Below are positions 12,602-18,974 of a DNA stretch of 18,974 bases, one piece after another. The DNA comes from a virus (taxonomy: Duplodnaviria; Heunggongvirae; Uroviricota; Caudoviricetes), in the IMG/VR virus record IMGVR_UViG_2711768057_000002; one strand, 5' to 3'. Under the pieces are notes generated by a model. It saw only the letters and a program-made list of their open reading frames with translations. It searched no databases and was not told the DNA's origin. The position numbers were made by a program, and so were the translations under genes. Each line of letters begins with the position of its first letter. Within the stretch, counting starts at the first letter, position 1.

Positions 12602-13204
12602 TTAGTGCGTCACTGGTGCTTCTGGGATGCCGTTTTCGTTTAGTTCGGCAATAAAGCTGTTGTGAAGATCGGCAAGCACTTCTCGCCCAAACGAAGTGAG
12701 TGTTCCCTGTTCGACATCGAACATGTTGCTGTAAAAAATGATGGCATTCTTTGTTCCGACATCAACACCATATTTCTCGATCATTGCGCCCTCAATGTTG
12801 TTTGCCATAGCGAGGCGCTCTGCTACTGGATACAGCGGCATGGCGACGATGCCATTGGAATAAACAGAAACCACGGAATGATTGCCACTGTCATCAATAA
12901 TGCTGACGGTGCCGTTTTCCTTTCTCATTTCATTGATGAATGCTGTTGCTATCAGCCAGCGCCACATAATCACGTGATGCTGTGATGTGTAATCGAAATA
13001 TCCCTGGTTGCCGCCACTGGCAATAGCGAGATGTATAAACATGCCTTCATCTGGTTTATCGTCATAATCCCCGGCATCCAGACGATTTACGGCATCAATA
13101 TATGAGACGGTCTCAACGCGTTCTGTCATGCCATCGTTGCTGCGGTGCATGATGTTTACGCCGTCAGGCGTTGCTTCTGCATGGAAAGTTAAGAAATTAT
13201 TCAT
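12602..13204 (-). CDS. Hypothetical 200-aa protein immediately upstream of the primase (start ATG 13204; track extends to 13309)
   Basis: ATG 13204 preceded by SD GAGG 7 nt upstream and located 2 nt after the stop of the upstream ORF (ATGAATAA overlap). Confidence 0.65.
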   Translation of the reverse strand: MNNFLTFHAEATPDGVNIMHRSNDGMTERVETVSYIDAVNRLDAGDYDDKPDEGMFIHLAIASGGNQGYFDYTSQHHVIMWRWLIATAFINEMRKENGTVSIIDDSGNHSVVSVYSNGIVAMPLYPVAERLAMANNIEGAMIEKYGVDVGTKNAIIFYSNMFDVEQGTLTSFGREVLADLHNSFIAELNENGIPEAPVTH

Positions 13205-13418
13205 GTTTCGCCTCGCCTGAATGATTCTGTAACTCATATTTGCCCAACAATTCGTCTGCTTCCTGAATAGCTTCTGGTACGCCATTGAGCAGTGACATAA
13301 CCGCGCCAATCATTAACTTGTCTCTGTTGCTGGGGCTGGCCCCTTCAAGCCAGAACCCTAAAACAGTCTGAACCTGTTCGATGCGACATTGCGCTTCAAT
13401 GAGCTGGATGTTGGTCAT
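13197..13418 (-). CDS. Hypothetical 73-aa protein
   Basis: SD GGAGAG 7 nt upstream; ATGA start/stop overlap with the upstream ORF. Confidence 0.55.
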   Translation of the reverse strand: MTNIQLIEAQCRIEQVQTVLGFWLEGASPSNRDKLMIGAVMSLLNGVPEAIQEADELLGKYELQNHSGEAKHE

Positions 13419-13678
13419 TTCGCACTCTCCACATCGATTAAACCGATATCTATCAGGGAGGTAACTTTTTGTAGCCAGCTATTGATTACTGTCGCCTGTT
13501 CCCCTCCCACCGAGGGAACAATCTCATTCATCACATGAACCAGACCTGTGCGCGCTCTGGTAAGCCGTTCAGTCGCGCAATCTGCGGGAGTGAATGTGTC
13601 TGGATATGGCTCTTCGCGCCCCAGCAATGATTCAATTTCCAGCTCACACGGATGACGATAAATTAAGTTGATATTCAT
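13415..13678 (-). CDS. Hypothetical 87-aa protein
   Basis: SD GGGGGTG 5 nt upstream; ATGA overlap with the upstream ORF. Confidence 0.55.
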   Translation of the reverse strand: MNINLIYRHPCELEIESLLGREEPYPDTFTPADCATERLTRARTGLVHVMNEIVPSVGGEQATVINSWLQKVTSLIDIGLIDVESAK

Positions 13679-13869
13679 TTTTCACCCCCAAGAATTACCA
13701 GCTCGGCACGGGCATCGTTAACCAAAGATGAGCACGCTTTAATCGCATCCACGACATCAGCAGCGTCCATTTCTTCAGCCGAAAGACTGACAGCAATCAG
13801 GACAGCCGCTGCTTGCTCGATTAATTGAAGTGCGGACGTAAGGCGAGGGGTATTAATTGAGTTATTCAT
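13675..13869 (-). CDS. Hypothetical 64-aa protein
   Basis: SD GGGGG 6-7 nt upstream; start overlaps the stop of the 342-aa ORF (ATGAATAA). Confidence 0.55.
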   Translation of the reverse strand: MNNSINTPRLTSALQLIEQAAAVLIAVSLSAEEMDAADVVDAIKACSSLVNDARAELVILGGEK

Positions 13870-14890
13870 TGGTTGCCCCCGTTTTTACTGGCATTTCGCC
13901 ACCTTCCAGCAGGAAATGAACGTCACGAACGGCGAGATCCAATATCGCGAGTAACGCCTTCAGTCTTTCGTCTCGTGAGGGAGAGTTGCTCACCAGAATG
14001 TCGTTAATCACTTCTGTCAGTGTGATGATCTGGCTTGTGCGTTCGAGGGGATCCATATGCACATCGTAGGTTTTAATCATGTGCCACCTCCATGCGGATA
14101 CGACCAGCAAAAAAGCAGACGTGATCGCGCACCAGAGAACGGCGAGCATCGCGTTCAGACTCGGCAGCAATATGATGAATTTTGGCGGTAATTGTCGGGC
14201 AATCGCGGCGAACTGCGGCGATAATCCAGATAAATTGCGGTTTTTGGGTAGGGGTAGTAGCCAGCATGTGGCAGCCTCCTTGATTGATGGTTTATAGCCA
14301 CCGCCCAAGAGACCAATCTTGCTGGCGGTGGACTGTACGGAGTTGGCCTTACTGGCAATCAAGGAAACCAGCCTACCCGAAGGTAGCCCCATACAGCCCA
14401 CCATTGATAAGGTGTGCGTGTGCGCCGATACAAAAAAAGACGCTGGCGCGTCATGTATCGCCTCGATTGTCAGCGGGAGGCCAATCCCGGCACCCGTTTT
14501 ATGAGGTGCCTTATAACCATAAACCGTGTTGCCGCATAACGGCAAGCTCTTTTTTATGGACTCCGAAAACTCACTATTGGAAGCACCAGATGCACAATAC
14601 ATCGCGCTCATTTCGTTAACGTCACGCGCATGGACGAAGGTTTTTGTGGAGTCACTACACGAGCGGAAGACATCATCTACGACCAGAAATTTTCTGGCGC
14701 AGCCGCTGACCTTCTCAATGCTAATATCATCGCCCGAGATTTCTGGTATGGTTAAGGCATCCGTTCCGACCACCAGCAAATGATAAACTTTGCTTGTATC
14801 TGCTGTATTAATGCCTGACTTTGCCGTCATATTGCTGGATTTTGGCGACATACCAGCCAGTGAAAATGTCTTCTTCTGGACGGGTATCAT
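13862..14890 (-). CDS. Hypothetical ORF (342 aa as drawn; possibly composite, see findings)
   Basis: Start at 14890 well supported (SD GGAGG 7 nt upstream, ATGA overlap with upstream gene); the central part has odd composition and an in-frame ATG at 14080 has its own strong SD GGAGGTG. Confidence 0.45.
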
Positions 14891-15066
14891 TGGTTAACCT
14901 CCGCGAACTCCTTCATGAAACGCGCCAGCGGTTGTACGCATGGCGATTGATACCCGTCGCGATAAAACGTCACTCGGTTGTGAGACACGCTTTCGACAGT
15001 AACGAGTGCTCCGTGGGCATCTTTGTAGCGTTTTTGTGGTTGTGGTATTCCTGTTGGCTTAGACAT
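14887..15066 (-). CDS. Hypothetical 59-aa protein (track ORF 14887-15153 trimmed to ATG 15066)
   Basis: SD GGAGG 7 nt upstream of ATG 15066, which overlaps the stop of the antirepressor-like gene (ATGTCTAA). Confidence 0.5.
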   Translation of the reverse strand: MSKPTGIPQPQKRYKDAHGALVTVESVSHNRVTFYRDGYQSPCVQPLARFMKEFAEVNQ

Positions 15067-16653: not shown

Positions 16654-17619
16654 CTACCCCTTACCGTTGGCGGCAGCACGTAAGTGTCTCAAAATCACAT
16701 CTTCATTTGTGATTGCTAACGGTGGAATTTCGTCTTTATGAGCCACTATGCAATCCCGCCACTTCTCAGGGCTTATTTCTTTCTTTTTGCCACGGCATTC
16801 ATCAGGATACTTTGACAAAAGATATATTGCTGATTTGAAAAGTTTTTCCCTGTTTTCAGCATGTCTCTCGGCATTATGGTTGCTATTTTTTATTTCAGGT
16901 ATTAGTTCCTGTTCTACCGCCATTTCGTATCGTTTTTTGCTCTTAGCTGCGTCAAAACTTCCATTAACCTTTGCGTCGTGAAGATATTCTAAATCAGCCT
17001 TTGTTATATAAATGTTTTTATCTGACAGGCTACTCAGGTGAATCTGGGAACTTTGCATTTTGAATTTATATAGATCACAATCAAATGTTGCTTCAAGTCG
17101 CACATATGGCTCTCCACATTCTTGTGAATGATAATGTCGTGTTGTACTACCGCGTACACGCAACAATCCGCATGCAATTGATTTTCTTACAATAAAAGAG
17201 TTTTTGCCAATTTGTTCAAAAACATTTTTATTGTCTCTGTCTTCAACTGTCAGTGGTTTATGTGCATAAAATAGCTCATAAGCACCGCTTTCAGATGCTG
17301 GGATATAAACTTCGTTGCTTGCGCTGGTAATAAGAAAAGGAAATGTAAACCTTACTTCTTCTGGGTACATAAGTAATAAATCAGTTATAAAATCAGCATC
17401 TTTTTTGAAGTGGATGGCGGCATCAGCTTCAATGAAATCAAGAAAGTCAGCATAGACATAAAAGTCTATATGTAGTCTATCTTTCCAATGCCATATATCA
17501 TCAATTTCACAATTTAATAATTTTGATGCTCGCTCTATCGTGCAGTAGTCCAAAGGTGGAATACCTGATTCCTGCCATAAATTTCTATGCACCGCAGTTG
17601 TTTCATGAGAGTCGTTCAT
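16654..17619 (-). CDS. Hypothetical 321-aa protein, AT-rich gene between int and alpA
   Basis: SD AAGGTG 7 nt upstream of ATG 17619; own terminator; markedly AT-rich versus neighbours; no family recognised. Confidence 0.7.
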   Translation of the reverse strand: MNDSHETTAVHRNLWQESGIPPLDYCTIERASKLLNCEIDDIWHWKDRLHIDFYVYADFLDFIEADAAIHFKKDADFITDLLLMYPEEVRFTFPFLITSASNEVYIPASESGAYELFYAHKPLTVEDRDNKNVFEQIGKNSFIVRKSIACGLLRVRGSTTRHYHSQECGEPYVRLEATFDCDLYKFKMQSSQIHLSSLSDKNIYITKADLEYLHDAKVNGSFDAAKSKKRYEMAVEQELIPEIKNSNHNAERHAENREKLFKSAIYLLSKYPDECRGKKKEISPEKWRDCIVAHKDEIPPLAITNEDVILRHLRAAANGKG

Positions 17620-17714: not shown

Positions 17715-18974
17715 TTAGTTCGCCCTTCTGAGAGGCGTTACGTTGTAGTCTTTTCCGCTTTCCAGTGCCACCAGCAGATCAGCCCACTGTGCCAGTGCTG
17801 CTTTACGCTCATCAAAATACTGATGGCGGTTATAAATCCCCTCTACGCCCTTAATGCGATGATTGAGGCATCGTTCCGCCACAACAGGATCAACACCCAA
17901 CGCTGCTAAATGAGTACGTGCGGTGCGTCGGAAGTCGTGAATCGTGAAATTAGGCACATCCGGCATTTCGGCGCGAACCTTAGCCAGTGCTACGGGTAAA
18001 GTGCTTTCCTGAATATGTGGGATCATTCTGTTTTGCATCTTCCTGGCCGGAAGCACCCATGCGCTATTACATGAAAAGGTGTGTAGCTCTCTCAACCATT
18101 CAACGGCTGGGGAAGGTAGAGGTATATCAATAGGGTCTCCGTTTTTGCTGCGTTCTTCCGGCAAATGCCATACCGCACCATCTAAATCAAACTCTTCCCA
18201 TCGTGCGGCGCATAACTCCATCTTACGAACGCATAGTGCCAGCAATAGCTTAAATGTCAGTTCGTTCTGGCGGCTGAATCCTTTTGCGGTGCGCATAGCC
18301 TCGAATAGCCTGATAAGCTCATCGCGAGTTAGCCAACGGTCGCGGGAAACCTCTTTACCACCAGCATCAGATACTTCAAACGCTGAACAAGGGTTTATCT
18401 CCAGAGCGTGGCGTTTTATCCCATAGTCAAAGATACGGCGTGTCCAGCGTAATACATCTGTTGCTATCGTTGGTGCTCCTCGGTCAACGATACCTTTCAA
18501 CATGTCGTCAATGTGGCGTGGCTTAACGTCCTCTACCTTCATATGCCCAATGCAGGGGTTAATATCCTTATCAATTCTCCGGCGAAGGATATCGGGATGT
18601 TTCCATCTCGGAAGTATCTGGCGCTCGAAGTATTCGGAGGCCAGATCTGAAACACGCATGGCGTTTTTCTCAGCCTCCATTTTTGCCAGTGCTTCAGCTT
18701 TTCGTTCCTGTTTCTCTGCTGCTACGTCATAGCCAAGAGCAACTCTGGCTGACAGCTCTTTTGCTGTTTCTCTGGCTTTTGATAGTGACAGTTCGGAGTA
18801 AGAGCCTATAACCATAGCCCGCTGCTTTCCTGCGAGCTTATAGCGGAATCGCCAGAACGGGACTGTGTAGTTTTTGGGGTAGCAAATATAAAGGCCGTTG
18901 CCGTCTGCCTTGCCATCAAATCTGTCTCCCGCCTTTATCCATGCGCGGATCTGCATATCTGTGAGTTTTGGCAT
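17715..18974 (-). CDS. Tyrosine site-specific integrase, P4/CP4-57 family (419 aa, start codon is the last 3 nt of the window)
   Basis: N-terminus MPKLTDMQIRAWIKAG...GLYICYPKNYTVPFWRFRYKLAGKQRAMVIGSYSELSLSKARE is the typical P4-like integrase arm-binding domain; C-terminal catalytic region HDFRRTARTHLAALGV...LNHRIKGVEGIYNRHQY carries the R...H-x-x-R...Y signature. Confidence 0.95.
   Translation of the reverse strand: MPKLTDMQIRAWIKAGDRFDGKADGNGLYICYPKNYTVPFWRFRYKLAGKQRAMVIGSYSELSLSKARETAKELSARVALGYDVAAEKQERKAEALAKMEAEKNAMRVSDLASEYFERQILPRWKHPDILRRRIDKDINPCIGHMKVEDVKPRHIDDMLKGIVDRGAPTIATDVLRWTRRIFDYGIKRHALEINPCSAFEVSDAGGKEVSRDRWLTRDELIRLFEAMRTAKGFSRQNELTFKLLLALCVRKMELCAARWEEFDLDGAVWHLPEERSKNGDPIDIPLPSPAVEWLRELHTFSCNSAWVLPARKMQNRMIPHIQESTLPVALAKVRAEMPDVPNFTIHDFRRTARTHLAALGVDPVVAERCLNHRIKGVEGIYNRHQYFDERKAALAQWADLLVALESGKDYNVTPLRRAN

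Follow-up and report, generated by a model that had tools for sequence, protein, structure and literature searches.

The IMG/VR virus record IMGVR_UViG_2711768057_000002, a stretch of 18,974 nucleotides (nt) that we refer to in its full length as the window, carries on its minus strand a long open reading frame (ORF) of 342 codons at 13862..14890. A first-pass annotation, made from the letters alone, had listed this ORF correctly and considered that it was probably not one gene. We find that it probably serves as immunity and leader region in a P4-like satellite island of Escherichia coli, laid out like eta, CI and kil of P4 with a +1 difference, in which the translated frame would shield the transcript from Rho. 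The earlier doubt was justified in that two genes within the ORF, icd and orf72, are real, while the two RNA families that it also contains and the correspondence to eta, kil and CI of P4 had been missed. The parts list of the region, the complementarity of its antisense RNA to the target, and the maintenance of the open frame are established.

An Rfam scan of the whole window revealed two RNA elements within the long ORF and on its strand, namely an isrK/seqA-like element at 14433..14509 (RF01394, 65 bits against a gathering score of 50) and a C4/CI-type antisense, or immunity, RNA at 14321..14408 (RF01695, 79.2 bits against a gathering score of 45). The Rfam families RF01695 and RF03163 go back to Weinberg et al. 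2010 (PMC2864571). The order isrK, C4, icd recurred in all 19 of the 19 genome loci from other Enterobacteriaceae. The 3' end of isrK looks like an intrinsic terminator, with a hairpin (14452-14439) and a subsequent T run (14438-14432) in the terminator scan. Upstream, and still inside the long ORF, a putative sigma-70 promoter resembling PLE occupies 14516..14545 on the minus strand, with the -35 element TTGCCG at 14545-14540, a spacer of 18 nt and the -10 element TATGGT at 14521-14516, ending 7 nt short of the first base of isrK. A generic promoter scan did not call this block; it is conserved in 86 unique loci, and P4 has its equivalent, TTGCCT-18-TATAGT, in the same place, which suggests a promoter function.

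The C4 RNA is supported by covariation, as compensatory double changes were found in 15 of its 28 pairs among 22 diverse homologues, consistent with the fold given in Rfam. Its second loop is variable and represents the specificity loop (about 14366-14357), with the sequence GGUUUCCUUGAUUG. This loop is complementary to CAAUCAAGGAGGCU (14286-14273), which contains the Shine-Dalgarno (SD) sequence of icd; the corresponding seqC/a2b2-like target, CAATCAAGGAGGCT at 14273..14286 on the minus strand, holds this SD as GGAGG at 14279-14275. Whole-molecule comparison of C4 with its targets by RNAduplex yielded long, meaningless duplexes and was replaced by a comparison of loop segments between cognate and non-cognate partners. 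Over 79 unique pairs, the loop and the icd leader gave a mean of -22.3 kcal/mol for cognate and -14.8 kcal/mol for non-cognate combinations, and the loop segment with isrK, which is the target of C4 on the upstream side, gave a mean of -29.3 kcal/mol with the own isrK and -18.7 kcal/mol with a non-cognate one. The Rfam model c4-a1b1 had no match in the window at an E-value of 0.1 or better, that site being covered by isrK; it was found in two relatives, and in P4 only under the gathering score.

The immunity cassettes, consisting of isrK, C4 and the leader, swap as modules. In comparison to relatives of 87-92% identity, the isrK-C4 part of the window is much more diverged than icd and orf72. 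Locus L111 has an icd body that is one base off that of the window, but another C4 loop, and hence another immunity type, and its junction is in frame; the breakpoint is situated close to where icd starts.

The same set of elements is found in P4. There, the ORF 8812-8168, with 214 amino acids (aa) from its first ATG, holds isrK (8692-8615) and C4 (8507-8420), ends in a Kil segment of 65 aa and matches both Phage_ASH (82 bits) and phage_ICD_like (73 bits); it is eta, with kil as its last part. In the sections of PMC10111431 on which we draw, the CI immunity RNA is located within P4 eta, and the C4 and isrK models of Rfam detect CI and seqA relatives, the paper citing Forti et al. 1999. The same sections describe Kil as a truncated Eta, with full-length Eta made only from an upstream promoter and coupled to the upstream gene, and translation of Eta as blocking termination (citing Forti et al. 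1999, J Bacteriol 181:5225). The window shares with P4 the coupled long ORF, the putative internal promoter, isrK/seqA, C4/CI, kil/icd and the next gene, all in the same order; the matches to the same Pfam and NCBIfam families; the complementarity of the CI loop to the kil leader; and a next gene (epsilon in P4, orf72 in the window) whose ATG overlaps the kil/icd stop by 8 nt. In contrast, kil is the in-frame end of eta in P4, whereas the long ORF of the window is +1 to icd and continues into the next gene. Furthermore, epsilon is unrelated to orf72, orf88 stands upstream in P4 where the window has the antA/AntB and DUF4222 genes, and the immunity specificity given by the loop sequence is not that of the window. 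The out-of-frame arrangement and the avoidance of stop codons are not described in the sections of PMC10111431 used here.

The icd/kil-like gene at 14073..14267 (minus strand, 64 aa) matches the NCBIfam family phage_ICD_like (NF033153), described there as a host cell division inhibitor, with 71.7 bits against a cut-off of 25 (3.7e-20) and has its own SD, AAGGAGG, seven bases ahead of its ATG. Its product is 38% identical to P4 Kil, which matches NF033153 as well; Kil was located via the P4 record itself, and a tblastn search of Icd against the phage collection gave no match. The frame of icd is -1 relative to the long ORF, which means that the long ORF reads icd in its +1 frame, crosses all of it without a stop, merges in frame with orf72 and ends at 13862 and not at the icd stop. 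The two frame classes of such loci are separated by one base in the spacer between SD and ATG (GGAGGCTGCCAC-ATG versus GGAGGCTGCCGCT-ATG), the spacer of the window being one base shorter than in the in-frame design of the P4 type. The first ~100 nt of icd display a rut-like (Rho utilization) excess of C over G of +13 to +21% in the window and P4 as well as two further loci, and such a C-rich, G-poor 5' part is as expected of a Rho loading site.

Over icd, the ratio of nonsynonymous to synonymous polymorphism (pN/pS) was 0.30 in the icd frame, indicating coding-type selection, and ~2 in the long-ORF frame, which applies whether or not the +1 frame belongs to the long ORF. The alternate-frame ORF noted in the first-pass annotation is therefore a real Icd/Kil-like gene by its NCBIfam match, its identity to P4 Kil and its pN/pS, and the central stretch of the long ORF is, as had been suspected, an out-of-frame translation. 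Over isrK and C4, pN/pS in the long-ORF frame amounted to 1.0-1.06, the same as in the other frames. The only protein family match of the long ORF, to Pfam Phage_ASH (PF10554; aa 124-219, corresponding to 14521-14234; 50.5 bits against a threshold of 26), coincides with the isrK and C4 elements and lacks the purifying selection on amino acids expected of a protein domain; the conservation of the Ash family seems to be owed to the RNA elements and the promoter, not to a folded domain. The amino acid sequence of the long ORF over the RNA genes and icd is not conserved.

The frame as such, however, is kept. Loci were gathered with an Icd probe from 185,579 species genomes, IMG/VR and metagenomes, and 169 of them, with 119 unique icd sequences, were analysed; some of the metagenome contigs may carry errors. 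In 166 of the 169 loci, one frame had no stop between isrK and the ATG of icd. Among the unique sequences, it coincided with the icd frame in 67 cases and with the +1 frame in 50; the +2 frame was never the only open one, and in the window it would be stop-free over icd with a probability of 0.02 by codon resampling. Upstream of isrK, where the sequence is non-homologous between loci, the long-ORF frame was open over a median of 354 nt, while the medians of the two remaining frames were 44 and 1 nt. The start-to-start distances between isrK and C4 were 98, 101, 125, 128 and 140 nt, all of them 2 mod 3, and the long ORF begins in overlap with a preceding stop codon in 120 of the 128 unique loci compared, as it does in P4. 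Since the frame is open far upstream, its start apparently coupled and its phase constant, the long ORF is maintained, in openness and in phase, across its relatives. The same spacing, upstream openness and apparent coupling to the preceding gene led us to reject the idea that the Ash ORF is a spurious translation of RNA genes.

This maintenance extends over icd in those loci where the long frame is the +1 frame. In this class, icd was free of stops in the long-ORF frame in 49 of 50 unique sequences, where codon resampling gave an expectation of 0.53, while in the in-frame class the +1 frame was stop-free across icd in 13 of 67 (0.20 expected), with stops at six or more different positions. 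After clustering at 10% nt distance, the stop-free clusters numbered 7 of 7 in the +1 class and 2 of 12 in the in-frame class (hypergeometric ~7e-4). In the icd tree both classes are interleaved and at least 16 switches between them are required, and the distant satellite L008 repeats the pattern; NH-21 (L005), a member of the other class, has a single ORF of 304 aa that joins the Ash and Icd parts in frame. Among 37 unique full-length relatives, 33 have an open, colinear long ORF of ~340-355 aa. The first-pass annotation had named a conserved single protein of about this length, colinear over the whole ORF in homologous islands, as what would refute it; a colinear ORF does exist, but it does not encode a conserved protein, given the pN/pS of ~1 over its Ash part and of ~2 over the icd overlap.

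Several points weigh against the region being a P4-like leader whose translated frame protects the transcript. We take the promoter, the positions at which the RNAs end, the dependence on Rho and a translation of the long frame from the analogy with P4, and a +1 crossing would yield an N-terminally extended orf72 fusion protein. In the window itself, the +1 frame over icd would be stop-free by chance with a probability of ~0.66 by codon resampling, so that its openness is unremarkable when taken alone and only the comparison across loci reveals more than chance. Those loci are related, mosaic and recombining, and the counts are therefore not independent events. Moreover, the long ORF is not open in 4 of the 37 full-length relatives, although some loci with a closed ORF may be assembly errors, and one sequence of the +1 class, L135 (metagenome contig OLFT01001494.1), contains a stop inside icd in the long-ORF frame. 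In L135, the only such sequence, Thr25 of Icd is changed to Ile, presumably by a codon change from ACA to ATA that creates a TAA for the +1 frame. A natural read-through knock-out or an assembly error may lie behind this sequence.

The rival to be taken seriously regards the long ORF as a by-product without a role. Function would then reside in the RNAs, icd and orf72 alone, and the openness would result from shared ancestry and from the constraints of the embedded elements. It agrees with the pN/pS of ~1 over the Ash part and ~2 over icd, with the chance probability given above for the window, and with the fact that the Ash part is often called a pseudogene by the NCBI Prokaryotic Genome Annotation Pipeline (PGAP). 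Yet a frame without a role does not account well for the long open stretch in non-homologous sequence upstream of isrK, for the overlap of its start with an upstream stop in nearly all loci, for indels between isrK and C4 that always keep the phase, or for the contrast over icd between the +1 class and an in-frame class lying at its null expectation. We therefore regard it as rather unlikely.

Considerably less probable is a recent frameshift, either a pseudogene or a sequencing error, in an ancestral in-frame eta-kil gene. L111 and L137, with a near-identical icd body, and the more distant L005 are indeed in frame, the difference being GCCACATGCTGG versus GCCATAATGG, and PGAP labels the Ash part as "incomplete; missing C-terminus". 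On the other hand, 50 unique icd sequences have the +1 arrangement, their sources being E. coli, Klebsiella, Leclercia, Pluralibacter, Symbiopectobacterium and metagenomes, and 49 of these are stop-free; at least 80% of the ORF length was covered in 479 of 5426 complete E. coli genomes. The changed base lies outside any homopolymer, the long frame remains stop-free, and icd retains its SD, its ATG and the pN/pS of a coding gene. Both the sequencing error and the pseudogene, which had been among the earlier suggestions, thus found no support.

Programmed frameshifting, also proposed at first, fared no better, and we consider it very improbable. A -1 shift would join the Ash frame to icd and produce a P4-like Eta-Kil fusion; in-frame relatives do encode an Ash-Icd fusion, and an SD-like AGGAGG stands directly upstream of the frame junction. 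However, no X_XXY_YYZ heptamer was found in the sole productive interval (~14291-14240). Heptamers in the ORF frame were present only at 14555, 14438 and 14114, of which the first two lead into an icd frame closed by stops and the third leaves 13 icd codons. In addition, icd has its own SD and ATG, and the AGGAGG is accounted for as the icd SD and the C4 target. A single genuine 342-aa protein of the "Ash family" with a sequence important throughout (PGAP WP_053286449.1) is hardly credible, in spite of the intact ORF, its good SD, a Phage_ASH match above the cut-off and such annotations in many RefSeq genomes, as this match is the isrK and C4 region without selection on amino acids, the middle is icd out of frame, the end belongs to another gene family that has a start of its own, and part of the N-terminal third is a fragment of a small-terminase gene read backwards.

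For the P4-like immunity and leader region that we favour, we propose the following course of events after what is reported for P4 eta. Transcripts from the internal promoter, untranslated in this part, would be the source of the short isrK RNA and, once processed, of the C4 RNA. The latter would mask the ribosome-binding site of icd, and the untranslated, C-rich RNA would then allow Rho to halt transcription ahead of the replication genes. Transcripts from the upstream operon, in contrast, would be translated from 14890 through the whole region, with ribosomes covering the C-rich 5' part of icd and blocking the shut-off by Rho and C4. Crossing icd in the +1 frame, the ribosomes of the upstream operon would make no Kil-type peptide and would continue to the end of orf72, whose stop overlaps in turn with the ATG that follows (13869).

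The +1 design may even be an evolved alternative to the nested eta/kil arrangement, in which a wrong but stop-free frame shields the transcript against both Rho and the immunity RNA, avoids the production of the division inhibitor Kil/Icd and delivers ribosomes in frame to the next gene; we put this forward only tentatively.

This next gene, orf72 (13862..14080, minus strand, 72 aa), shares the frame of the long ORF and behaves as a gene in its own right. It begins with ATG at 14080-14078, six nt behind an SD (GGAGG, 14091-14087), and this ATG overlaps the icd TAA (14075-14073) in CACATGATTAA. An internal SD and start at this position, the stop of the alternate frame overlapping it, and, as one possibility, a separate gene in the last 72 codons were anticipated by the first-pass annotation and agree with our data: 35 unique homologues, 68-72 aa in length, begin without exception at the junction ATG, pN/pS is 0.53, and in four orf72-bearing loci the long ORF stops at the icd stop. 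No match to orf72 was obtained in Pfam, NCBIfam or PHROG, and no similarity to P4 epsilon, though both occupy the same position. The last icd codons (...MEVAHD) encode the orf72 SD (GGAGGTGG), and the C-terminus of Icd, "EVAH[AD]/EVAA", may be conserved for this reason. An ATGnnTRR junction of icd stop and next start was present in 49 of 51 variants of the +1 class, which means that the long ORF runs in frame through the next gene. Further along the minus strand (13197-14080), orf72 overlaps orf64 by 8 nt (13869-13862), and later ORFs overlap by 4 nt at 13678-13675 and 13418-13415. Such a chain of overlaps suggests tight translational coupling toward the gene of a DUF5906/P4-type primase at 12589-10238.

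At its other end, the long ORF starts seven bases behind an SD (GGAGG, 14902-14898), and its ATG is overlapped as ATGA by the TGA (14889-14887) of a DUF4222 gene (14887..15066, minus strand; Pfam DUF4222, 1.2e-24; PGAP coding sequence mapped from L002). The overlap suggests translational coupling between both. An antA/AntB gene is located further upstream at 15892-15059. The first 123 aa of the long ORF had no match in Pfam, NCBIfam or PHROG; the N-terminal 381 nt revealed a weak periodicity, with 26/17/31 changes by codon position and a pN/pS of 0.52, and appear to be under weak constraint at best. Within this first third, 14636-14742 is antisense to part of the small-terminase ("DNA-packaging protein") gene in a prophage of E. 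coli NRG857C, identical in 98 of 107 nt. Here, aa 90-125 of the small terminase (TerS) are read on the plus strand of the window, and the homology stops abruptly. A transcript of the operon would therefore hold ~107 nt antisense to a helper-type terS mRNA, and the stretch could be a recombination scar or interfere with the packaging of a helper.

Similar arrangements are known from other phages. The immI operon c4-icd-ant of phages P1 and P7 is reportedly the subject of studies by Citron and Schuster in 1990 and by Riedel et al. in 1993. Like the window, it combines a C4 antisense RNA, released by processing of the shared transcript, with one target further upstream (a1b1) and another that covers the ribosome-binding site of icd (a2b2), and its small icd gene is coupled to the next gene; the P1-like plasmid L007 displays the same isrK-C4-icd block, with its long ORF in frame. 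A difference is that the antirepressor directly follows icd in immI, where the window has orf72, with antA/AntB upstream.

In Gifsy-1 of Salmonella, isrK-orf45-anrP comprises the small RNA isrK, which has a promoter of its own and ends at a leaky intrinsic terminator, a short ORF that is reached by read-through and is conserved in nucleotide but not in protein sequence, and an overlap of stop and start that couples the next gene; the short IsrK RNA acts in trans on the read-through transcript, activating downstream translation (PMC4825925). The window shares isrK with a putative promoter and terminator, the nucleotide-conserved read-through ORF and the coupling by overlapping stop and start. 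The next gene of Gifsy-1, in contrast, is an antirepressor gene, and the trans-activation by IsrK is described from that locus. For the Bro-zone of Gram-negative phage-inducible chromosomal islands (PICIs) and helper-embedded PICIs (HE-PICIs), the sections of PMC10111431 cited above report C4 and isrK Rfam matches inside Bro-network genes of several satellites and propose a P4-like immunity.

Public annotations render this region in different ways. In RefSeq records of the same or near-same DNA (L001, L002, L003 and L004), PGAP gives either an "ash family protein" of 342 or 355 aa or an Ash pseudogene "missing C-terminus" plus an Icd-like gene; the pseudogene style leaves out orf72, and isrK and C4 are listed in none of the four records. 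A further RNA of the window, int-alpA (RF02996; 17640-17706, minus strand; 60.6 bits against a gathering score of 35.8), is situated between the ORFs 16654-17619 and 17715-18974, the latter being the presumed integrase gene. Many Shiga toxin (Stx)-converting phages (phage-collection matches H92-H120) contain the isrK-C4 block, at 82-84% identity, within genes called "Rha family" or "regulatory protein", and the long ORF over these RNA genes may be an eta-like read-through frame as well.

The isrK-C4 block is found also in Stx phages and P1-like plasmids. While 2,371 E. coli genomes had a match, the ORF was covered to at least 80% in 479 complete genomes of this species. If the +1 design is what we tentatively propose, read-through would be separated from toxin production, and selection would act purely on the absence of stops in an overlapping frame. 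The comparison of these loci represents a natural test of the idea, derived from P4, that it is the translation of the leader and not its product that counts: a frame shifted off kil is still kept free of stops.

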